This document shows, one piece after another, positions 1 through 16,307 of a stretch of 17,095 bases of DNA. Both the position numbers and the translations under genes were made by a program. The notes under the pieces were generated by a model. It saw only the letters and a program-made list of their open reading frames with translations, was not told the DNA's origin and did no database searches. Source of the DNA: a virus. Taxonomy: Duplodnaviria > Heunggongvirae > Uroviricota > Caudoviricetes. The stretch spans positions 1-17,095 of IMG/VR virus record IMGVR_UViG_2778261641_000010. One strand, given 5' to 3'. Position 1 is the stretch's first letter; each line of letters begins with the position of its first letter.

Positions 1-17
1 TTGCAGGAAACGGTAAA
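1..17. other. Inner end of the partner (left) crossover site / terminal inverted repeat of the invertible segment, truncated by the window edge
   Basis: Bases 1..17 are the reverse complement of 3027..3043 (1 mismatch). Bases 1..9 (ttgcaggaa) would be the last 9 bp of an inverted 26-bp site whose remainder lies left of the window. Confidence 0.5.
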
Positions 18-954
18 TCAGGCTTCTGGCGCATTACAGAAAAACCAGAACGGCGCAGATATTCCAGGAAAAGATACCTTCACCAAAAATATTGGTGCCT
101 GCCGCGCATACAGCCCATGGCTGAATATTGGTGGCGATAGTCAGGTCTGGACAACCGCGCAATTTATTTCGTGGCTGGAGAGTCAGGGAGCATTTAACCA
201 TCCTTACTGGATGTGCAAAGGCTCATGGGCTTATGCAAATAATAAGGTCATTACAGATACAGGTTGCGGAAATATTTGTCTTGCAGGTGCTGTGGTGGAA
301 GTTATTGGCACTCGCGGCGCAATGACCATACGCGTTACTACGCCGAGCACGTCCAGCGGTGGCGGAATTACTAACGCTCAATTCACTTATATTAATCATG
401 GTGATGCTTATGCTCCTGGCTGGCGACGAGACTACAACACGAAAAACCAGCAGCCTGCATTTGCTTTAGGGCAAACAGGACGCAGGGTCGCAAATGATAA
501 AGCTGTTGGCTGGAACTGGAATAGCGGCGTTTATGATGCAGATATCAGTGGCGCATCGACATTAATCCTCCACTTTAATATGAATGCGGGGAGTTGCCCT
601 GCTGTACAGTTCCGCGTGAATTATAAAAACGGCGGTATCTTTTATCGTTCAGCGCGTGATGGTTATGGCTTTGAAGCTAACTGGTCAGAGTTTTACACCA
701 CAACCCGCAAACCCTCTGCGGGGGATGTTGGTGCATATACGCAGGCAGAGTGTAACTCAAGGTTTATTACAGGTATTCGCCTGGGCGGTCTGTCATCTGT
801 TCAGACATGGAATGGTCCCGGCTGGTCTGACAGGTCAGGTTATGTCGTTACAGGTTCAGTTAACGGAAACCGTGATGAATTAATTGATACAACACAGGCA
901 AGGCCAATTCAGTATTGCATTAATGGAACGTGGTATAACGCGGGGAGTATTTAA
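1..954 (+). CDS. Alternative tail-fibre C-terminal (variable) domain cassette, 5'-truncated by the window edge; currently not joined to the stf constant part
   Basis: Open frame from base 1 to the stop at 952-954. The first 17 nt (ttgcaggaaacggtaaa, encoding LQETVN) are the reverse complement of 3027..3043 inside stf with one mismatch, then the sequence diverges. The C-terminus ...[14 protein letters not shown] matches the stf C-terminus ...FRPIQKYINGTWYN. It is followed 2 nt later by a tfa-type gene. No start codon or RBS of its own, as expected for a silent cassette. Confidence 0.7.
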
Positions 955-956
955 TT

Positions 957-1490
957 ATGATGCACTTAAAAAACATTACTGCTGGCAATCCTAAAACGAA
1001 AGAACAATACCAGCTAACAAAGCAATTTAACATCAAATGGCTTTATTCAGATGATGGAAAAAACTGGTATGAGGAACAAAAGAACTTTCAGCCTGATACG
1101 TTGAAAATGGTCTATGACCGTAACGGCGTTATTATTTGTATTGAAAAGGATGTTTCAGCAATTAATCCAGAAGGCGCAAGCGTCGTTGAGGTTCCTGATA
1201 TTACAGCAAATCGCCGGGCTGATATTTCGGGTAAATGGATGTTCAAAGATGGCGTAGTGGTAAAGCGAACTTATACCGAGGAAGAGCAGAGGCAGCAGGC
1301 GGAAAATGAAAAGCAAAGCCTGCTACAGCTCGTCAGGGATAAAACCCAGCTATGGGACTCACAGCTACGGCTGGGCATCATTTCCGACGAGAATAAACAA
1401 AAATTAACCGAGTGGATGCTCTATGCGCAGAAAGTCGAATCTACAGACACTTCCAGCCTGCCAGTAACGTTTCCCGAACAACCTGAATGA
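957..1490 (+). CDS. tfa: Tail fibre assembly protein (Tfa/Mu U-like chaperone), partner of the silent fibre-tip cassette
   Basis: 177-aa ORF. The N-terminal ~110 aa ([22 protein letters not shown]...[19 protein letters not shown]) are near-identical to the minus-strand Tfa at 1519..2046, and the C-terminal ~60 aa are divergent. It starts 2 nt after the upstream fibre-tip stop. Confidence 0.8.
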
Positions 1491-1493
1491 GAC

Positions 1494-1520
1494 AAGGCCC
1501 GATAGCGGGCCTTAATTTTT
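1494..1520 (+). terminator. Hairpin terminator between the two convergent tfa genes
   Basis: aaggcccg-atag-cgggcctt forms an 8-bp GC-rich stem with a 4-nt loop, followed on the plus strand by aatttttatt and preceded by an A-rich run on the minus strand. It lies exactly between the convergent stops at 1490 and 1519. Confidence 0.55.
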
Positions 1521-2046
1521 ATTCAGGCTTTTGTGGCCATTCAGGATTTGCCGTATCCACACGGCTGACCAGAACACTGTAGCGTTCCCATGACTCCAGT
1601 CGTGCGCGTTCCTCATCCGTCGCCATATTCAGCCTGACGGCGCGTTCCAGTGGCTGAATAATGCTTTCTGCTTCGGAAAGTAACGCGGCCTTTTGTGATT
1701 CTGCCTGTTGTTGCTGCTCATCTGTCGTATAAATCCGTTTAACTACAGTTCCGTCCTTAAACATCCACTTCCCTGAATCATCGGCGCGACGATTGGCTGT
1801 TATATCTGGAATCTCAACGACACTAAAGCCTTCGGGATTAAGCGTTGAGGCATCTCTGGTGATAGCGACAATAATATTATTTTCATCGTAAACAATCTTT
1901 ATTGTGTCTGGCTGAAAGTTCTTCACTTCCTCATACCAGTTTTTTCCGTCTTCGGACCATAACCAGATAACATCAAAATTCTTTGTTAGCTGATATTGCT
2001 CTTTTGTTTTTGGATTACCTGACTTAATGTTCTTTAAATGCTGCAT
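1519..2046 (-). CDS. tfa: Tail fibre assembly protein (Tfa) for the currently expressed fibre tip
   Basis: 175-aa ORF. ATG at 2046 lies 3 nt after the stf stop, with AGGTG upstream. The C-terminal motif ...[27 protein letters not shown] is typical of lambda Tfa / Mu U-family chaperones. Confidence 0.85.
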
Positions 2047-2049
2047 AAC

Positions 2050-5000
2050 TTACACCTGCGCAACGTTATACCATGTGCCATTGATGTATTTTTGTATCGG
2101 CCTGAAGATGGCTTCATCATCGCCATCTACTTCACCAATGATTCTTAATCCGGTAATCGTGTGTCCGGCTTTTTCATAACGACCACCACGCGCCATCAAT
2201 TGAACAACACGTGTGCCAAGTCGGACATCTCTCACATAGCGTGAGTCAAAATTGCCATAATTTCCGGGAATAATTTGCGCACCGCAAAGCCAGTTACCGT
2301 TATTGTCCATGTACGCCTGACCATCGGTGCCATTGGCTGTCCTTGAGTTATTAATCATGTAGATGCCAAATTGCTTGTTCCCCAGTCCACCTATCATGAA
2401 CTTGCGGTCAGCGTGATTCTGGCGAAGCAACGCCTGAGCGCTATCAGTGTTAACTATATTTTTCCCAAAGATAGCGTTGTTATCGCGCATCTGAATCCAC
2501 ATACCATTACTGCTGTTAATAGCAAAACGGTCTGAAAGCGTCTCCCCTGAAACATTAAGGCCACGCCCCATCGAAACAGCGCCAGTAGCGTTATTAATCC
2601 ATAATGGCCTTAATCCGTTATAAGTCCCCATGTTGTCACCGGAGTTTGTCAACATGAAGTATGTATTTGAACCATCATTACGAATAAAGAATCCGTAATT
2701 ACCATAAGCAATACGTAGGCCGTTTGCTGATTTTGATATGACTTCGCCATTTACAATGGCATTGACAAGAACATACAAAGCATCCCATTTAAGATTCATC
2801 AGGTCTTTTGTTGTGGTGCTTTGTTTGCTTCTCCATTTGAAATATTCATTGCCGTTGTCGCCTGTTTCAAACCACATGTATGAATCAGTATCGCTGTCGG
2901 CATCATTTTTAAAACCAATCTTCGCCCAGTCAGTATTTCGAATCCAGGCAAGGATTGAGTCATTTTCAAAAGTAAGCCCGCCGGACAAGGTATCGCCTGT
3001 CTTTTGAACGGCGTTACCAGCCTTGTTTACCGTTTCCTGTAAACCGAGGTATTCGATAACGGCGGCAACGGTCGATTTCGCAAGAATATCCCGCCCGACT
3101 TTTGTCAGGGTTGCCAGGCTGGCGACATCATTCCCCGTAAAATACGGAAACCTGTCTGCCGCAGTAGCAAGCCCGGCCAGCGCCGTCAGGGTGGCATCTT
3201 TCGGTTGCTTACCCGCAAGCGCGTTAGTCATGGTGGTCGCAAAATTCGGGTCGTTTCCCAGCGCCGCCGCCAGCTCGTTCAGCGTGTTCAGTGCGTCAGG
3301 TGACGAATCTACAAGGGCGGCAATCGCAGCCATAACGAAAGCCGTGCTTGCGATCTGAGTATTGTTAGTACCTTTTGGCGCAGTTGGTGTTGTTGGTGTT
3401 CCGGTCAGCGCCGGACTGTTCAGGGGCGCTTTCTTGTTCGTTTCATCCATTACCACCTTTACAGCTTTCGATGTCGCGGCCAGTGTTTCAGACGTGCTGT
3501 TGGTGGCGCTACTGAGCTGGACAAGGCCTTTTCGCGTCGTGCTGGCATCCTGCGCAGTATATTTACCGTTAGCAAGATCATACGCGGCCTTTACTGCTTT
3601 CGGCGTTGCAGCCTGCGTTTCAGACGTGCTGTTGGTTGCACTACTAAGCTGAACCACACCTTTTTTCGTCGTGCTCGCATCCTCAAGCGCCACGGCGGAT
3701 GCAATATCCTCTGCCCGTTTTGCCGCTGTCTCAGCGCGCGTTGCTGCAGATTCCGCCGTACTTTTGCTCTGAGCTGCTGCCGTCGCACTACCAGCAGCCT
3801 CTGTCGCCTTCGTGGATGCCGTCGTGGCGCTGCCCTTCGCTGCTGACGCCTGTCTGGTCGCCTCATCTTTTGAAGCAGACGCCGATGAGGCCGATGACGC
3901 CGCCGAACTGGCGGACGATGCCGCTGCCGTTTTTGAGGATTCTGCACGGGTTTCCGACACTTTCGCGTTCGTTTCGGATGTCTTCGCTGCGGAAGCTGAC
4001 CTCGCTGCTGCCGTGGCCTGTTCAGTGGCTTCGCCAGCCTTCGTTGTGGCTGTTGAAGCGGATGATGCGGCGCTTTCTGCCGACTTTCCGGCAGCGGTGG
4101 CACTGGCTGAGGCCTGCCCGGCACTTGTTGACGCGGCACTGGCAGATGATGCAGCCGCTGTTTTTGAGCCTGCCGCAGCTGAGGCACTCTGTCCCGCTGC
4201 CGTTTCAGAAGACCTGGCGTTCGTCTCGGACGTCTTTGCCGCCTTCGCGGAATTTCCTGCCGCCGTTGCCGAGGAAGCGGCACTACTGGCGCTTGATGAT
4301 GCGTTCGTTTCTGATGATTTCGCTGCCTCTTTTGAGGCCGCCGCATCCCAGGCTGAGGTGGCAGCTTCTGACGCCTTTGTGGTCGCTGCGGATGCAGAAG
4401 TGGCTGCAGATTTTTGTGACGCTGCCGCATTCGTTTCTGACGTTTTCGCCGCACCGGCACTGGTAGCTGCCGCGCTTTTTGAGGACTCTGCAGCGGCAGC
4501 ACTTTTTGATGCTTCAGTAGCCTTTGTTGATGCCGTTCCTGCGCTGGAAGACGCTGACTGAGCCGACGTCGCGGCCTGCCCGGCTGATGTGCTGGCTGCA
4601 CGTGCTGAGCCTGCAGCATCAGTCGCATGGGTTGCCGCCTCACGGGCTGATGTGCTGGCATCACTGGCTGACTTCTTCGCGGCTGCCGTGTTCTGTGCCA
4701 CCACGGACGCGTTACGCGCCACCTCTTCCACCATCAGCTCAAAACGGCGCAGTGCCTCCGGACGGGCGTCATCCTCCGTCATGGCACCGAGAAAATCATT
4801 CAGCGTACCGGGTCGGGAATCTTCATACACTGTGATGGTCCCGGCATGTGACGGCGGGAATCCTTCCACCAACAGAATAACGCTGTACTGACCGTACTCA
4901 ACGTCCATACTGTAACGCCCGGCTTCATCCGGATTTTCAGATGCCAGCGTGTTCACCACCACCGTGGTACTGTTACGTTTTGCTTTCAGCTGGATTGTGC

Positions 5001-5058
5001 AGTTCTGTACCGGTTTTCCTGTTCCGTCTTTCAGTACACCTGAAATTTTTACTGCCAT
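2050..5058 (-). CDS. stf: Side tail fibre protein Stf: lambda-like N-terminal constant part, long Ala/Ser/Thr-rich repetitive shaft, invertible C-terminal tip
   Basis: 1002 aa from the ATG at 5058 (MAVKISGVLKDGTGKPVQNCTIQLKA..., which I recognise as the lambda Stf N-terminus), with a GGAG RBS 5 nt upstream. The GTG two codons further upstream abuts the RBS and is rejected. Phage tail-fibre repeat motifs (DASTTxKGxVQLSSATNSTSE) occur twice. A gix-like site lies in frame at 3034..3059. Confidence 0.85.
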   Translation of the reverse strand: MAVKISGVLKDGTGKPVQNCTIQLKAKRNSTTVVVNTLASENPDEAGRYSMDVEYGQYSVILLVEGFPPSHAGTITVYEDSRPGTLNDFLGAMTEDDARPEALRRFELMVEEVARNASVVAQNTAAAKKSASDASTSAREAATHATDAAGSARAASTSAGQAATSAQSASSSAGTASTKATEASKSAAAAESSKSAAATSAGAAKTSETNAAASQKSAATSASAATTKASEAATSAWDAAASKEAAKSSETNASSSASSAASSATAAGNSAKAAKTSETNARSSETAAGQSASAAAGSKTAAASSASAASTSAGQASASATAAGKSAESAASSASTATTKAGEATEQATAAARSASAAKTSETNAKVSETRAESSKTAAASSASSAASSASSASASKDEATRQASAAKGSATTASTKATEAAGSATAAAQSKSTAESAATRAETAAKRAEDIASAVALEDASTTKKGVVQLSSATNSTSETQAATPKAVKAAYDLANGKYTAQDASTTRKGLVQLSSATNSTSETLAATSKAVKVVMDETNKKAPLNSPALTGTPTTPTAPKGTNNTQIASTAFVMAAIAALVDSSPDALNTLNELAAALGNDPNFATTMTNALAGKQPKDATLTALAGLATAADRFPYFTGNDVASLATLTKVGRDILAKSTVAAVIEYLGLQETVNKAGNAVQKTGDTLSGGLTFENDSILAWIRNTDWAKIGFKNDADSDTDSYMWFETGDNGNEYFKWRSKQSTTTKDLMNLKWDALYVLVNAIVNGEVISKSANGLRIAYGNYGFFIRNDGSNTYFMLTNSGDNMGTYNGLRPLWINNATGAVSMGRGLNVSGETLSDRFAINSSNGMWIQMRDNNAIFGKNIVNTDSAQALLRQNHADRKFMIGGLGNKQFGIYMINNSRTANGTDGQAYMDNNGNWLCGAQIIPGNYGNFDSRYVRDVRLGTRVVQLMARGGRYEKAGHTITGLRIIGEVDGDDEAIFRPIQKYINGTWYNVAQV
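3034..3059. other. gix/cix/pix-family 26-bp recombination (crossover) site for a Gin/Pin-type serine invertase, embedded in stf
   Basis: ttcctgtaaaccgaggtattcgataa: imperfect dyad around a central GA, and from memory a ~23/26 match to Mu gixL (TTCCTGTAAACCGAGGTTTTGGATAA). It sits exactly where the two fibre-tip sequences stop being alike. It encodes ...IEYLGLQE... in the stf frame. Confidence 0.7.
3437..3700 (-). repeat. Tandem direct repeat (2 x 132 bp, imperfect) inside stf encoding duplicated phage tail-fibre repeat motif
   Basis: The block cagacgtgctgttggt(g/t)gc(g/a)ctact(g/a)agctg appears at ~3489..3520 and ~3621..3652, 132 bp (44 codons) apart. Encoded peptides are DASTTKKGVVQLSSATNSTSETQAATPKAV and DASTTRKGLVQLSSATNSTSETLAATSKAV. 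Confidence 0.7.
3700..4730 (-). repeat. Low-complexity Ala/Ser/Thr/Lys-rich periodic region of stf (fibre shaft) with recurring AAKTSETNA-type units
   Basis: The translation shows AAKTSETNAAAS / AAKSSETNASSS / AAKTSETNARSS / AAKTSETNAKVS units. All three frames of both strands are open over much of this stretch because of the GC-rich repetitive composition. Confidence 0.6.
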
Positions 5059-5067
5059 ATTCACTCC

Positions 5068-5096
5068 ACAAAAAAGCCCGCCTGAACCGGCGGGCT
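5068..5096 (-). terminator. Rho-independent terminator downstream of lom, immediately upstream of the stf RBS
   Basis: Minus strand AGCCCGCC-GGTTCA-GGCGGGCT (8-bp GC stem) followed by TTTTTTGTGG, running straight into the stf GGAG RBS and ATG. Confidence 0.7.
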
Positions 5097-5122
5097 GTCA
5101 TAACACTGTGTTACCTGGCTAA

Positions 5123-5722
5123 TCAGAATTTATAACCGACACCCACGATGAAACCGTCAGTGCGCCAGTCGCCACTGCCGGAACCTTCATAAGCAAGGTC
5201 AATGGCCACGGATTCGGTCGGGTTAAACTGCACGCCAGCCCCCCACGCCAGAGACGTGTTGCTGTGGCGACCGCCATCACTCCCGGTCAGCACATCGTGC
5301 GTTTTCCCCTTGTTGTCAGTTACGCGGAGATAATCCCCGGAGAACGTCGAAACACGGCTGTAAGCCACACCCGCCATCGCATAAGCACTGAACCATTCAT
5401 TCACGCGTACAGACGGCCCCGCCATCACGCTGAACCAGCGGTTACGCACTGAATCTTCATGCCAGCGGGTATCGCTGTAACGGGTAATCTGGCGATTCTT
5501 GTCTCCTGCATAGCTGAATGACGTCACCAGCCCCAGCGTGTCCGTAAATTCATAACGGTATTTCACGTTAATGCCCTTCAGGTCATCACTGCCTGGCATA
5601 TCAGTATGGGTCTGAAGATACCCGGCGCTTAGTGTGGACTGATGCTCTGCTGCGCTCGCTGGCGTACCAGCGGCAACCAGCCAGACTACTGCGGACAGAA
5701 TAACAGCACATAATTTACGCAT
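5123..5722 (-). CDS. lom: Lom outer-membrane protein (Ail/Lom/PagC/OmpX-family beta-barrel); lysogenic-conversion moron
   Basis: 199 aa. N-terminal signal peptide [29 protein letters not shown]-terminal ...[10 protein letters not shown] beta-barrel signature, and strong resemblance to lambda Lom as I recall it ([10 protein letters not shown]...[11 protein letters not shown]...[34 protein letters not shown]). RBS AGAGGT 5 nt before the ATG. Confidence 0.9.
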
Positions 5723-5743
5723 AATTACCTCTCGCTTTTCTGC

Positions 5744-5770
5744 AATAAAAAAGGCGCCATTTCTGGCGCC
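5744..5770 (-). terminator. Rho-independent terminator after J, upstream of lom
   Basis: Minus strand GGCGCCA-GAAA-TGGCGCC (7-bp stem, GNRA-type loop) followed by TTTTTTATT, about 20 nt after the J stop. Confidence 0.7.
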
Positions 5771-5789
5771 CGTATCTGGGTTATAAAAT

Positions 5790-8700
5790 TCAGCTAATCG
5801 TGATGCCTGCAGTGGCTTTCTTCATCACAACAACCAGCAAATCGCTGATACTTGCTGTGGGATACCAGTCATTTACCCACCATGCTGATACAGAAAACTC
5901 CAGTGTCATTACACCACTGCCTGCAGGCATATCAATAACACCCGTGTATATCAGCGTATTATCCAGAGCCGTTCGGTTATAAATTTCAGCCCCGTTTTTC
6001 TTCACTATCAGGCGGCATGACGAATAAGTATCGCTATTCTCCCGCTCATGTCTGGCACCGCTGAAAGCCACCGCTGGAATAACAATTTGCCGGTCAAACG
6101 GCTGATCGTCATAAACCCTGACGGTAATGGTCCCTGATGGCCACCGCTCCGGAGCACGGGAGTCCCGGGGGAAAGCTTTGCCCACTGTTTTAACGAGATC
6201 GCCTTCAATCTGGTTCGCGGACAGTTTTCCCAGAACCCGACAGTTCTCGTTAATCGTGACGTTGTTGAGCGTCCCGGAGTTCGCATTCACGTTACCGCTG
6301 ATATCGGCATTTTTCGCCGTCAGCCGCCCGTCCGGTGTCAGGGAAAATGCCGGAGGATTACCGCCGCTGGTAATGGTCGGAGCCGTCAGGCGTTTCAGGA
6401 ACACGTCGTTCATGAATATCTGATCGCCCTGACCAACAAACATTGGTCTTGTGTTGCCATTAGACGGATCAATAAACGCGATACGGTTAGCGGCAACCAG
6501 GAACTGGCTCAGTTTGCCTTCCTCCGTGTCCTCCATGCTGAGGCCAATACCCGCGACATAATGTTTGCCGTCTTTGGTCTGCTCAATTTTGACGCCCCAC
6601 ATGGCATTCCACTTATCGTTGGCGTCCTTCCACTCTTTCGAAAACTGCTCCAGTTTGCTGGCGTTATCTTCCGTCAGCTCAAAGTTTTCCAGTAGCTCCT
6701 TGCCGAGATGCGTTTTATTGATCAACCCTTTATAAAAATTCAGATAACCTTCCGCATCATCGCTCGCCCGACCGACGGCCTCCACAAATGCCGATTTACC
6801 AACGGTATTCACGCTGCGGATATAAAAGTAATAATCATAACCCGGCTTAATATTGCTACTGGCAGCTATCCAGTACAGCGCCGTGCCAAGATAGCGGGCT
6901 GTGGTTTCAACCTGCCTGATATCAGCAATCCGCTTTTCCGAGAACCAGAACTCAAACTGCACCGTCGGGTCATATACAGCCAGTTTCGGGACCGCTGTTA
7001 TCTGAAAATACCCTGGTATCAGTTCAATAGTGACAGGCGCTGCAGGTGCGGCAATCCGGAACGATACCGATGCCGGATCGCCCTGCTGCCCCCACGCATT
7101 TGCCGCCCGGACCGTCAGCGTGTAACGCCCCAGCGCCAGCTGCCTGAAGCGGTATGTGGTTTCCGTCGTCCGGACCGTGCTGACCAGCCGCTCACTGCCG
7201 TCATCCGCTGTTACGGTCAGACGGAGCAGGAAGCTCACGCCCTTCACCACCTTCGGCGTGTCCCAGCGGGCCAGTACCTGATATTCCCCGCTGTCTGCGG
7301 AGACTTCGGCGGTCAGATGCTGCACTGCTGGCGGCGTGACACCATTCACCGTGCCGCTCTGGTCGCCGTCAAAGTGCGCCCCGTTATCCACGATGGCTTC
7401 TTTTTCCGGTACATGCTGCACGGCGGTGATGGCATACGTGCCGTCGTCGTTCTCACGGATACTCACGCAGCGGAACAGGCGCTGGCGCAGCGTCGGCAGC
7501 TTCAGCCCCCATACGCTGTATTCAGCAACGCCGTCAGGAACACGGCTCACTTTCACCTTCACGCCGTCGGCGACGGACTGAACCTCCACGCTGACCGGAT
7601 TGCCACTTCCGTCAACCAGGCTTATCAGCGTGGTACCGGAGGATGGCAGCGTGATTTCACGGTCGAGCGTCAGCGTCCGGGTCTGGCTGTTCACCGCCAG
7701 CACACGACCACCGTTGCTGATACCGGCATAGTCATCATCGCAGATTTCAATGACATCGCCCGGTACATGGCGAAGCCCTTCAGCACCCACGCTGAAGTCC
7801 ACGGTCTGCGTTTCCAGCAGCTCCGTTTTAATCAGCCACAGCCCGGCGCGGTGTGCCTGCCCCCGGCTGGTACAGCCAAAGGCATCCATCTTCGTGACGT
7901 TACGACCGTAACGGGCAATGGCCTGCGTGTCCTCCACAAGCTCTGTTGCCGTCTCCCAGCCATTGTCCGGGTCAATCCAGTTCACCTCAACGGCATTATG
8001 GCGGTCCTTCAGGGCGCTGAAGCTGTAGCGGAACGGCGCGCCATCATCCGGCATCACCACATTACTGCGGTTATAGGTCCACACCTTATCCGACTGTCGG
8101 TCCTGCACGAACGTCAGCGTCTGCCCGTTCCATACCGGCATACAGCGCATCGCCGAGCAGAAATCACTGAGCACATCCCACGCCTTGCGCTGTGTGGTCA
8201 GGTACGCATTACAGGTGATGCGCGGCTCCGTGCCGCCAAAGCCGTCCGGCACTGACTGGTCGCAGTACTGGCCGATGACATACAGCGCCCATTTGTCCAC
8301 ATCCGCCGCACCAAGACGTTTCCCCATGCCGTAGCGCGGGTGGGTCAGCATATCCCACAGACACCAGGCCATGTTGTTGCTGTATGCTGGTTTTAACGTT
8401 CCGTCCCAGATACCGCTGTATTGTCGCGTCTGCGGGTTATAGTTCGACGGCACCTGCAGAATGCGCCCGCGAAGATGATAATTACGGCTCACCTGCTGGC
8501 TGCCGAACTGCTCCGAGTCCACCTGTACGCCGACCAGTGCCGTGTTCGGGTAGCACTGTTTCACATCGATGATCTCGGTGTATGACGACCAGAGCGTTTT
8601 GTTCTGCAGCTGGTCTGTGGTGCTGTCCGGCGTCATCCTGCGCATCCGGATATTGAACGGGCGCGGCGGCAGGTTATCCACCACCACCGAGGCCAGATAC

Positions 8701-9185
8701 TGCGAGGTGGTTTTGCCCTTAATGGTGATGTCTTTTTCCGTCACCCAGCCACCGTTACGCTGTATCTGAACCAGCAGGCGGACTTCCGACGGATTCCTGT
8801 CTCCCTTTGAGGTGGTTTCCACCAGTGCCTGTACACCGAAGGTAAAGCGCAGACGGTCGATGTTTGCCGACGTAATGGTACGGGTGATCGGCGTGTCATA
8901 TTTCACTTCCGTACCCAGCACCGTCTCGGAGCCGGAGGATTCAAACCCCTCCGGCGGTGTCTGCTCCTGCTCACCTGCCCGGAACACCACCGTGACACCG
9001 GCGATGTTGGTATTCCCTTCACTGTCCAGCACCGGCGTACTGTTCAGCAGCACGCTTTTTAATCCATCCACCGGACCTTCTATCGGCCCTTCGCTGATGG
9101 CATCGATCACACTCAGCAACTGCGTGGACTTCAGGTTATCCTTCGCTTCGCGCGGGGTATGCCCCTTACTGCTGCCTTTACCCAT
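5790..9185 (-). CDS. J: Tail tip / host specificity protein J (central tail fibre)
   Basis: 1131 aa. The N-terminus [45 protein letters not shown]... is the lambda J N-terminus as I recall it. The size and the position after I fit, and a GGAG RBS precedes the ATG. Confidence 0.9.
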
Positions 9186-9195
9186 TCCTCACGCT

Positions 9196-9227
9196 CCATA
9201 AACGACAAAACCGCCCGGAGGCGGTTT
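9196..9227 (-). terminator. Terminator-like hairpin between I and J
   Basis: Minus strand AAACCGCC-TCCG-GGCGGTTT followed by TGTCGTTTAT (interrupted U-tract), in the 60-nt I-J gap. Confidence 0.45.
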
Positions 9228-14816: not shown

Positions 14817-14826
14817 TCTCCGGACG

Positions 14827-14847
14827 AAAAAAACCGCCGAAGCGGTT
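14827..14847 (-). terminator. Short terminator/attenuator-like hairpin between GT and the tape measure gene
   Basis: Minus strand AACCGC-TTCG-GCGGTT (5-6 bp stem, UUCG-type loop) followed by TTTTTTT, then the GGAGA RBS of the tape measure gene. Confidence 0.4.
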
Positions 14848-14855
14848 ATGTTGAC

Positions 14856-15544
14856 TCACTGAGACACTATTAAAAGCGCGTTTTCCAGTCCGGCAAATGG
14901 ATCTGAGACGCCTTCTGTCTGCTCTTGTTCCCACTGAAGAAGCGCATCATTCAGTGGGACTTTGACACCCTGCGCACCGTAAACCGCAGAAACTATCTGG
15001 GCAGCCCGGATATCAGCCCGCTCGTCACCCAGCGGGCTGAACCTGTCAAATTCTGCCCACATCATGATTTCTGATGCGGACATTTCCCGGCGTAACTCTG
15101 ACAATGTGCGCCCCATCCTGAGCGCCAGCATCATCAGAAAACGCATCCCCGGAAGCTCTACTTTTTTTTAACCTCGCCGGCATCACTGATCAGTTCCAGA
15201 GACTGCCGAAGAAGCCGCGCATGCACCGGGCCATACACGGCAATCACCTGTTCACGATCATCCTCTGAAAATACAGGTTGCAGTCCGGTATCACACAGAA
15301 CATCAATGAACAGTTCAACATCTGCCTCCAGATTTCGGCGGGCGCGCTCCGCAACGGATAACGGTGTCTCATCATCTTTTGCTTTAACGATCTCCTGCCA
15401 GCGCAACCAGGCTTCTGCAGAAGGTTCCCGTAATACAACCGTTGCCCCTTCCCATTCAGGCACATCAACAGTTTTATGGCGAAACCCCGACATCGTTGCC
15501 AGTGCCAGATTGCGGATATTTTTAGTCATCACATCTATCCTCAT
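14856..15544 (-). CDS. Tail assembly chaperone GT fusion produced by programmed -1 ribosomal frameshift
   Basis: The ORF at 14856..15146 has codon phase exactly -1 relative to G. The G frame ends ...GTT AAA AAA AAG TAG, so a slip on A_AAA_AAG (15161..15167) continues K-V-E-L-P-G-M-R-F-L... to the stop at 14856. The downstream ORF has no plausible independent RBS. Confidence 0.65.
15158..15544 (-). CDS. Tail assembly chaperone G (0-frame product)
   Basis: 128 aa; the ATG at 15544 overlaps the major-tail stop (TAATG). An alternative start is the ATG at 15529, with GAGGA 8 nt upstream. Position immediately before the tape measure gene and the acidic C-terminal half fit a G-type chaperone. Confidence 0.75.
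   Translation of the reverse strand: MRIDVMTKNIRNLALATMSGFRHKTVDVPEWEGATVVLREPSAEAWLRWQEIVKAKDDETPLSVAERARRNLEADVELFIDVLCDTGLQPVFSEDDREQVIAVYGPVHARLLRQSLELISDAGEVKKK
15161..15167 (-). promoter_or_regulatory. -1 programmed ribosomal frameshift slippery heptamer A_AAA_AAG, directly followed by the 0-frame stop TAG
   Basis: Run of 8 A then G on the minus strand (plus strand c-tttttttt-a at 15161..15170); A_AAA_AAG is a classic slippery sequence (e.g. dnaX). Confidence 0.65.
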
Positions 15545-16248
15545 TAACTGACGGTAACAGTGCAGGAAGTGGAGGTCACCTTGTTAACAGGGCTTGCTGA
15601 ATCAGAAATCTCGCAGGTATACGCACCGGCATCACCTGATGCTGCTGATGCCTTACTGAATGTTGCCGCCGTCTGTCCGGAAACAGGAGAACTACCTTTC
15701 TTCCAGACATAAGAATAAGGCGGCACACCACCGGCAGCCTCAACCACCATTTCGAGTTTCGCTCCGGCAGAAACCTGCAGCGTGCTGTTTAAATCGACCT
15801 TCACTTTCAGCGGCTCTGTCGTCAGCACAGGTTTACCTTTCAGGCGCAGGGAAAACGTTGCAGCCACAACACCATTAGTTCCTGCAGACCAGGTATGCTG
15901 ACGCACCTCTGCCATAAAGGTAAATCCGTTGCCTGACGGAAAAATAACTTTAAAGCCATACGTGGTGTCATTGTCATAGGCACTGCGCAACGCGTTCTGG
16001 GCAGCATTGAGGTAAAAGTTGCCTGACATGGAAATCTCTGACGCGGCACCAAGGCCGTTAATATTTTCCTGCTCAACAGAACACAGCGTGGTGACATCAA
16101 TATCCTGCTTTTGTCCTGCGGTAAACTGCACCTCTTTGATTGTACAGCTCAGGCCAAGATAGCTGGCAGAATCCAGGGTTTCTGCTGTTACCGGTGCAGA
16201 CGAAATCATAATTTTCGTCAGTTGCGAACGCTCAAAATTAGAGGACAT
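15544..16248 (-). CDS. Major tail protein with C-terminal Ig-like (Big_2-type) domain
   Basis: 234 aa from the ATG at 16248 (MSSNFERS...), with AGGAGA 5 nt upstream. The ORF-track 5' extension runs through a terminator hairpin and is rejected. The C-terminal ~80 aa (...VSAGAKLEMVVEAAGGVPPYSYVWKKGSSPVSGQTAATFSKASAASGDAGAYTCEISDSASPVNKVTSTSCTVTVS) resemble an Ig-like decoration domain. It sits just upstream of G/GT. Confidence 0.8.
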   Translation of the reverse strand: MSSNFERSQLTKIMISSAPVTAETLDSASYLGLSCTIKEVQFTAGQKQDIDVTTLCSVEQENINGLGAASEISMSGNFYLNAAQNALRSAYDNDTTYGFKVIFPSGNGFTFMAEVRQHTWSAGTNGVVAATFSLRLKGKPVLTTEPLKVKVDLNSTLQVSAGAKLEMVVEAAGGVPPYSYVWKKGSSPVSGQTAATFSKASAASGDAGAYTCEISDSASPVNKVTSTSCTVTVS

Positions 16249-16260
16249 ACTCGTCTCCTG

Positions 16261-16287
16261 AAAATAAAAAACCCGCCAGCGGCGGGT
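16261..16287 (-). terminator. Rho-independent terminator-like hairpin in the leader of the major tail gene
   Basis: Minus strand ACCCGCC-GCT-GGCGGGT (7-bp GC stem) followed by TTTTTATTTT, then AGGAGA and the ATG of the major tail gene. Confidence 0.6.
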
Positions 16288-16307
16288 GGGTAAAATCATT
16301 AACGACC

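Follow-up and report, generated by a model that had tools for sequence, protein, structure and literature searches.

Does a lom gene that lies between two hairpin terminators in the tail operon of a lambda-like prophage represent an independently acquired cassette, or do the hairpins belong to the operon in which it sits? The stretch of DNA analysed here (17,095 nucleotides, hereafter the window) raises this question at the junction of the tail genes J and stf. An earlier note, made from the sequence alone, had described lom as a classic moron, a lysogenic-conversion gene insulated by terminators on both sides and transcribed either from a promoter inside the 3' end of J or by terminator read-through. 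The identity that it gave to lom, the two terminators and the absence of space for a promoter are right and the insulation of a moron was over-read, so that the description as a whole is partly supported.

Gene content and layout of the region

Pfam matches identify the window as the tail module of a lambda-like prophage, with its genes on the minus strand. The Pfam order begins with a gp10-like tail-component protein, the tail-completion protein, the tube protein and the G and T chaperones, and continues with the tape measure, M, L, K, I, J, Lom, the side tail fibre Stf and the assembly protein Tfa. The features around lom are as follows.

9185..5790, minus strand: J, tail tip / host specificity protein of 1131 aa, with the stop codon TGA at 5792-5790
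5771..5744, minus strand: J-lom hairpin of the intrinsic-terminator type, GGGCGCCA-GAAA-UGGCGCCU followed by UUUUUAUU
5733-5728, minus strand: Shine-Dalgarno sequence GAGAGG of lom, read from the sequence, 5 nt before the ATG at 5722
5722..5123, minus strand: lom, Ail/Lom/PagC-family outer-membrane protein of 199 aa with a signal peptide
5096..5070, minus strand: lom-stf hairpin of the intrinsic-terminator type, AGCCCGCC-GGUUCA-GGCGGGCU followed by UUUUU
5058-2050, minus strand: stf, side tail fibre, with the Shine-Dalgarno sequence GGAG at 5067-5064, the start codon ATG at 5058 and the Pfam domains phage_tail_N, Phage_fiber_2 and Gp34_trimer

The coordinates of the three genes bear out the placement of lom between J and stf. 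Seven GpJ-related Pfam domains were detected in J, including Ig_GpJ_C at residues 1001-1131. The spacers on the minus strand measure 67 nt between J and lom and 64 nt between lom and stf, and each contains a GC-rich hairpin followed by a U-tract. The GTG at 5064 given in the list of open reading frames is the mechanical first start of stf, and the ATG at 5058 was taken as the start.

The product of lom aligns over its full length with the Ail_Lom profile PF06316 (residues 1-199 on profile positions 1-199, 407.7 bits against a cut-off of 23, E = 1e-122), which confirms its assignment to the Ail/Lom/PagC family. The signal peptide that had been ascribed to it is likewise recognised on inspection of the translation, where MRK, a hydrophobic core and ASA/AE make up a signal-peptide-like segment at the N-terminus. 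The C-terminus, also by inspection, reads ...VGYKF and ends in an aromatic Phe, typical of outer-membrane barrels. The protein shares an amino acid identity of 88% with the Lom of phage 434 and 45% with the Lom of lambda.

Hairpins on both sides of lom

The stem of the J-lom hairpin is formed by positions 5770-5764 paired with 5759-5753 and is extended by a G5771-U5752 wobble, giving eight pairs, six of them GC, around the 4-nt loop GAAA; the tail UUUUUUAUU occupies 5752-5744. The hairpin starts 18-19 nt past the J stop, and its end is 21 nt from the lom ATG and 10 nt from the Shine-Dalgarno sequence. It folds at -14.7 kcal/mol (z = -5.3), and none of 200 dinucleotide shuffles was as stable. 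On the other side of lom, positions 5096-5089 pair with 5082-5075 around the 6-nt loop GGUUCA, forming a stem of eight pairs (seven GC) that starts 26 nt past the lom stop and is followed by the U-tract UUUUUU at 5075-5070. This lom-stf hairpin folds at -17.7 kcal/mol (z = -5.35), again with no equally stable structure in 200 shuffles, and the Shine-Dalgarno sequence of stf starts two bases beyond its U-tract, in agreement with the description of a terminator that runs directly into the stf ribosome-binding site. The terminator scan calls both hairpins, and both rank among the three strongest of 26 terminator-like sites in the whole window. The four strongest of these sites are all confined to the intergenic spacers, a fraction of about 2% of the sequence.

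Several hundred homologous loci were gathered by Lom protein match and by DNA pattern, and the alignment used for covariation in the J-lom spacer comprised 23 distinct homologous variants. The J-lom stem is paired in 96.7% of the cells of this alignment. Two adjacent pairs switch on both sides, from G-C to A-U in 4 distinct rows and from C-G to U-A in 8, giving the stem variants GCGCC/GGCGC, GCGTC/GACGC and GCACC/GGTGC. The covariation score was reached by none of 500 shuffles, and in a control in which the partner was slid by 1-3 columns only 35-63% was paired. The compensatory changes indicate selection on the structure of this putative terminator, and together with the fold energy and the distance from the J stop they uphold the claim of a GC-rich stem and U-tract about 20 nt past the end of J. 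The lom-stf stem is 96.9% paired across 16 distinct variants. The changes in it are one-sided and mostly preserve pairing as wobbles, so these 16 variants carry no covariation signal and the stem is supported by conservation. The U-tracts after both stems are kept in almost all homologues, and the lom Shine-Dalgarno sequence GAGAGG is invariant in all window-type spacers collected through the protein match, while the segment 5' of the J-lom stem varies freely among homologues.

Hairpins of independent sequence occupy the same positions in other alleles. Three other Lom types carry unlike sequences at the J-lom position, among them CGUCCG-GGAA-CGGGCG in lambda and GGCACCU-CAGG-AGGUGCC in a Lom type 60% identical to that of lambda, and at one locus (L011) the J-lom hairpin travels with lom beside a different J end. 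The lom-stf hairpin is nearly identical in lambda; in three further loci (L067, L017 and L084) it is replaced by an unrelated strong hairpin with a U-tract, placed directly before the stf ribosome-binding site. From these comparisons we conclude that both hairpins are built like intrinsic terminators and that selection maintains the J-lom structure and probably also the lom-stf structure.

Hairpins in the other gaps of the tail operon

The window's tail operon has five same-strand gaps of at least 39 nt (U-V, T-H, I-J, J-lom and lom-stf), and all five contain a hairpin. The order in each is a GC-rich hairpin, a U-rich run and the ribosome-binding site of the next gene. The three hairpins away from lom are as follows.

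16287..16261, minus strand: U-V hairpin with a strong stem at 16287-16271, ACCCGCC-GCU-GGCGGGU, followed by UUUUUAUUUU, the Shine-Dalgarno sequence AGGAG and the start of V at 16248
14847..14825, minus strand: T-H hairpin with its stem at 14847-14832, AACCGC-UUCG-GCGGUU, followed by UUUUU and the Shine-Dalgarno sequence GGAG; called by the scan, weaker
9227..9201, minus strand: I-J hairpin with its stem at 9227-9208, AAACCGCC-UCCG-GGCGGUUU, followed by UGUCGUUUAU and the J ribosome-binding site

The T-H and I-J hairpins are weaker terminator candidates than the others. The fold of the whole T-H spacer is no better than that of its shuffles (z = -0.87), and the I-J hairpin, which folds at -21.1 kcal/mol (z = -2.68), was left unflagged by the terminator scan because its U-tract is interrupted. 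An uninterrupted run of 5-6 U follows the U-V, T-H, J-lom and lom-stf stems. In lambda such hairpins are found at E-FI, I-J, J-lom and lom-stf, the one at I-J being the same as in the window with the loop UGCG, and the HK97 record has an annotated putative terminator 11 nt before J.

With a hairpin in every sizeable gap, flanking terminators are a property of the gaps in this operon and not the mark of an insulated insert. The earlier note's view of the two hairpins as insulation specific to lom therefore does not hold, since hairpins of the same kind stand in all five gaps of at least 39 nt, and the arrangement of lom between terminators is an ordinary one.

The promoter question

A search of the minus strand from 4500 to 6500 found no sigma-70-type site, and between the J-lom terminator and the lom ribosome-binding site no -10-like hexamer above threshold was found, in line with the remark that this interval leaves no room for a promoter. 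The best sigma-70-like match lies further upstream.

5935..5908, minus strand: candidate sigma-70-like site, TTGATA, 16 nt, TGgTGTAAT; inside J, 186 nt before the lom ATG and upstream of the terminator

Among 170,600 positions scored with a position weight matrix across the whole window, this site ranks first. It has no -11 A, its -10 is common to only about 10% of homologous J ends, most of which have GGTCACATG, and its -35 falls in the conserved peptide VIDMP. As a lom promoter it was rejected on the grounds that the -10 is not conserved and the -35 is part of a conserved protein motif. No other good sigma-70-like match lies in J.

Other candidates around the upstream hairpin were also rejected. 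A sigma-54-like TGGC...TTGC over the 3' arm and U-tract of the J-lom hairpin has, on inspection, a spacing that is 3 nt too long. The hexamer TATAAC after the J stop (5785-5780), which would start an RNA 2 nt before the J-lom hairpin, has no -35 and is not kept in L011, in L082 or in lambda, and was dismissed as a general promoter. A further hairpin inside J (5857-5835) was examined by inspection as a possible RNA structure; its pairing is lost in the L090-type sequence, and its conservation therefore reflects coding. In the predicted 206-nt leader no antiterminator alternative was found, the terminator hairpin being present in both the minimum-energy and the centroid fold. An Rfam search of the whole window gave nothing at the gathering score, and the matches around lom, at E values up to 10, were at chance level.

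Sequence scans may miss a weak or activator-dependent promoter. It is reasonable to hold, as had been proposed, that lysogenic transcription of lom must start inside J or rely on read-through, and for the lom allele of the window lysogenic expression, if any, probably depends on read-through of the J-lom hairpin. Expression of lom in lambda lysogens has been reported (PMC7067206, PMC1151598). In an array study lom was not detected in lysogens, and little was said to be known about its promoter (PMC2147009). The strong terminator directly upstream, with no promoter after it, fits awkwardly with the reported lysogenic expression, which concerns the lambda allele.

Distribution and comparison with known phages

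Matches to the 1.2-kb J-lom-stf segment occur in 226 phage records and in 4815 of 5426 complete E. coli genomes; in 3251 of these genomes the match extends over at least 80% of the segment. Among the sampled loci, a J 3' end of the window type is followed by the J-lom hairpin in all 172 copies, and a stf start of the window type is preceded by lom in 105 of 106; the remaining copy has a deletion that fuses an endolysin-like reading frame with the hairpin's 3' arm. Because of this fixed association on both sides, the cassette is not a recent independent acquisition at this evolutionary scale.

In lambda (NC_001416) the order J-lom-stf is the same, with the J end at 18903, lom at 18965-19585 and the stf start at 19650. 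The lambda spacers of 61 and 64 nt, against 67 and 64 nt in the window, each hold a hairpin and a U-tract. Sequence is almost identical between the two at the 3' end of lom, in the downstream hairpin and at the start of stf, whereas the Lom proteins are the divergent pair noted above and the upstream hairpins differ. Lambda also has a -10-like hexamer, TATTAT at 18939-18944, right after the upstream hairpin and 21 nt before the ATG, which the window allele lacks; judged by its sequence, it could be a weak promoter for the lambda lom allele.

Phage 434 (OL657227, 18918-19652) has the same Lom type as the window in the same place between J and the side tail fibre gene, at the identity given above. 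The long-tailed lambdoid phages that convert to Stx1 or Stx2 production, such as VT1-Sakai, also carry this Lom type at the same position (88-89% identical), and their whole J-lom-stf segment matches that of the window at about 89-91% DNA identity. Phage 434 and the long-tailed Stx phages differ from the window by allelic changes only, and the hairpins are annotated in none of the records. The short-tailed Stx phages of the 933W type are unlike these. In ArgO145 (NC_049918) an Ail/Lom-family gene near the tail genes (49110-49844), whose product is 33% identical, is followed by the intrinsic terminator ACCCGCUGUGAUGGCGGGU with a U-tract and has before it an AT-rich spacer of 90 nt that holds no terminator, a promoter-gene-terminator layout that contrasts with that of the window. 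The small RNA 24B_1 lies downstream of lom in phi24B, in a 933W-type context, and is absent from the lambda-type spacer according to its authors (PMC4426718). A 24B_1 small RNA was accordingly rejected for the window, whose context is different.

Since the same layout is found in lambda, in 434 and in the majority of complete E. coli genomes, it was known before. That lom stands between J and stf in lambda is textbook knowledge, and the published sequences of lambda and 434 contain the same hairpins; the locus has little importance beyond its correct annotation.

Comparison with morons

As defined by Juhala and Hendrix and summarised in PMC3594210, a moron consists of a promoter, a gene and a terminator and is of atypical composition. 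That lom is extra DNA is supported by more distant siphoviruses, in which it is absent between J and the fibre gene. In HK97, J leads to stf without lom, and the N-terminus of the HK97 stf is unrelated to that of the window. In Serratia phage Opt-155 only 15 nt separate a J-family gene from the fibre gene after it, which has the same N-terminal domain, and no lom stands between them. In a protein search the N-terminal domain of stf retrieved nothing beyond close, fragmentary relatives, and the distant junctions came from the phage collection.

A downstream factor-independent terminator is present as well, in the hairpin at 5096-5070. No sigma-70 promoter of its own was recognised for lom on the minus strand from 4500 to 6500, in the spacer or at the J-internal site. 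The GC content of lom is about 0.55, and its 200-nt windows (0.49-0.585) lie within the range of those of J (0.425-0.655) and stf (0.49-0.645); these windows gave no compositional sign of foreign origin. The layout seen in the window is thus terminator, gene, terminator, without a recognisable promoter.

The morons of HK97 and HK022, for example gp22/gp23 of HK97 between I and J, are likewise extra DNA between genes that are adjacent in relatives. The HK97 moron and the lom of the window each have a factor-independent terminator immediately ahead of the late gene that follows, and both the HK97/HK022 morons and lom would be tolerated where late transcription is antiterminated. An own promoter and atypical GC content belong to the definition of a moron, and neither was found for the lom of the window. 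The description as a classic moron therefore stands as regards the extra DNA and the downstream terminator and fails as regards the promoter, the GC content, which is ordinary, and recent independent acquisition, the cassette being fixed among relatives.

Proposed mechanism and alternative explanations

Q-modified polymerase from pR' reads through terminators along the whole lambda late operon. The reading that we prefer, and consider likely, is that lom belongs to a lambda-like prophage and is flanked by two selected terminators of the Rho-independent type, members of an operon-wide set that is read through with Q in the lytic cycle and stops transcription in the lysogen. By analogy with lambda, Q-modified polymerase would pass all the hairpins during lytic growth, so that J, lom, stf and tfa would be carried on one long late transcript. 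Such read-through fits the strong lytic production of Lom, the gene being reported as strongly expressed in the lytic cycle (PMC9836094, citing Liu et al. 2013). In the repressed prophage, which has no Q, an unmodified polymerase that starts inside the silent late operon would be expected to stop at the next hairpin. The J-lom hairpin would then limit transcription entering lom from J, and the lom-stf hairpin would end lom transcripts before the tail-fibre genes. Expression of lom in the lysogen would come from residual read-through of the J-lom hairpin or from a weak, non-canonical start that is not recognisable in the sequence. For this particular element, termination, read-through with Q and lysogenic expression of lom are all things we infer from its sequence and its relatives.

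The competing view of lom as an independently acquired moron, with terminators of its own and a lysogenic promoter in the 3' end of J, seems unlikely. It would account for the absence of lom between J and the side-fibre gene in HK97 and Opt-155, for the upstream hairpin that accompanies lom beside the different J end of L011 and for the location of the window's top sigma-70-like site in J. Against this, the same kind of hairpin occupies all other sizeable gaps of the operon, the composition of lom is not atypical, the J-internal site has neither the -11 A nor a conserved -10, the cassette is fixed with the J end (172/172) and the stf start (105/106), and a promoter upstream of a strong terminator would give mostly terminated transcripts. 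Another reading makes the J-lom hairpin a regulated attenuator, so that a transcript started in J would reach lom only when hairpin formation is blocked, whether by a protein, by a small RNA, by temperature or by ribosomes translating the end of J. The terminator does stand between the sole candidate promoter and lom, and the J stop is 18-19 nt from the stem, where a terminating ribosome would sit close. We nevertheless regard such an attenuator as very improbable, given that no competing pairing appears in the minimum-energy or centroid fold of the 206-nt leader, that Rfam has no match and that homologues differ freely in the segment before the stem. It is also quite improbable, if a little less so, that the late operon is locked by a hairpin in each gap, making every cistron dependent on Q, with the J-lom hairpin as a leaky or regulated attenuator metering out a low, condition-dependent lysogenic expression of lom from a start in the 3' end of J; if true, this would explain the lack of a reported lom promoter in the literature examined.

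The hairpins may alternatively be barriers to 3'-to-5' decay on the late polycistronic RNA, which would stabilise the J or lom segment after endonucleolytic cutting, with termination incidental; if true, neighbouring gene products would be made at different levels. This is somewhat doubtful as the main explanation. In its favour, the hairpins follow genes in an operon that is read by a terminator-resistant polymerase and would have no termination role in lytic growth, lambda has a hairpin directly after the major capsid gene E, and structure is conserved where sequence is not. A stabiliser needs no U-tract, yet 5-6 U follow four of the stems and are kept in nearly all homologues. A barrier to decay is compatible with the preferred explanation by read-through and stop, and is possible as a second role of the same hairpins. 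That they are chance inverted repeats without function deserves practically no credence. The number of terminator-like sites in the 2-kb neighbourhood, 4 against 2.1 +/- 1.6 in shuffled sequence, is not significant and would by itself allow for chance, but no shuffle in 200 gave a fold as good as that of either hairpin, compensatory changes are seen in the upstream stem, other alleles have independent hairpin sequences at the same position, and intergenic sequence, roughly 2% of the window, holds all of its strongest sites. Covariation and position together refute it.

Given selection on the J-lom structure and a hairpin in every sizeable gap, flanking terminators by themselves should not be taken as a sign of a foreign cassette in operons antiterminated by Q. 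The 434-type allele of the window, which is common in E. coli and lacks even the -10-like hexamer of lambda, offers a clean test case for whether lom is truly expressed in lysogens and for where such expression starts.

Hairpins in the gaps of the tail operon

Terminator-type hairpins are not confined to the spacers on either side of lom. The U-V, T-H and I-J gaps between tail genes also hold hairpins of this type, each followed by a ribosome-binding site (RBS), and therefore all same-strand tail-operon gaps of at least 39 nt have one.

Terminator-type hairpins in the other tail-operon gaps
16287-16261, - strand, U-V hairpin, then RBS
14847-14825, - strand, T-H hairpin, then RBS
9227-9201, - strand, I-J hairpin, then RBS

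The same hairpin-in-gap pattern is found in lambda, at E-FI and I-J. The mechanical ORF of the major tail protein (15544-16299, - strand) has its start, 16299, within the U-V spacer; the true start is most likely the ATG at 16248, which lies past the U-V hairpin and the Shine-Dalgarno motif AGGAG. J and stf of HK97 (L326 in our collection of related loci) lie 207 nt apart; this spacer lacks a canonical terminator and holds a long inverted repeat, GGAAGGTGCGAATAAGT ... ACTTATTCGCACCTTCC, around about 70 nt (5040-5170 of L326).

Near the 3' end of J, a stretch of low GC content (0.43-0.48) contains promoter-like matches on both strands.

Candidate promoter-like matches near the J 3' end
5935-5962, + strand, ATAACA-16-TATTAT
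5935-5908, - strand, TTGATA-16-TGTAAT

Variants of the lom-stf junction and Lom matches in other assemblies

Several related loci differ from the window at the junction of lom and stf. In three of them (L067, L017, and L084), lom has an alternative 3' end and is separated from stf by about 150 nt of spacer, which holds two unrelated hairpins; the second of these, GCCCGUGGCGUCACUGCUGCGGGC followed by U7, lies immediately 5' of the stf RBS. In three others (L027, L047, and L054), the stf homology stops 3 nt past the U-tract of the lom terminator, and the element after the break has a first reading frame starting MGNEKSLAHTRWNCKYHIVF. Because we take MGNEKSLAHTRWNCKYHIVF to be the start of an IS200-type transposase, these loci presumably carry an insertion adjoining the lom terminator hairpin. 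L143 is the sole locus with a window-type stf start but no lom before stf; here, an endolysin-like reading frame continues directly into the 3' arm of the lom-stf hairpin, and the junction looks like the product of a deletion or recombination.

Assemblies of Neobacillus, Kitasatospora, Pseudomonas, Shewanella, Bradyrhizobium, and others also gave Lom matches (L092-L102, L103, L104, L109, L110, and L112-L115), and the contigs that bear them have a coverage of about 1x. Among these matches, the full-length ones (L092-L102) are 45% identical to the Lom of the window, exactly the value of lambda lom, and those of them that were inspected have the same flanking sequences as lambda; some shorter Lom fragments in these assemblies are closer to the Lom of the window than the full-length matches are. 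These loci look like contamination by DNA of lambda or a related phage.

The tail-fibre end of the window

Positions 1-3060 form a candidate invertible tail-fibre segment, with the following features.

Features of the candidate invertible segment
within 1-3060, - strand, stf C-terminal part
2046-1519, - strand, tfa, beside the stf C-terminal part
957-1490, + strand, second tfa, opposite the - strand stf/tfa
1-954, + strand, alternative fibre C-terminus (gp37_C match), likewise opposite the - strand stf/tfa
1-41 and 3002-3042, inverted-repeat arms

Positions 3035-3060 read TTCCTGTAAACCGAGGTATTCGATAA, which we take to be similar to the gix crossover site of Mu. The segment looks like an invertible one, with a second crossover site that appears to span the left end of the window; the invertase gene would be expected beyond the window. 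The 28-nt gap separating the two convergent tfa genes is occupied by a strong hairpin, AAGGCCCG-AUAG-CGGGCCUU (1494-1513), which folds equally for both strands at about -15 kcal/mol and is followed on the + strand by a T-rich tail.
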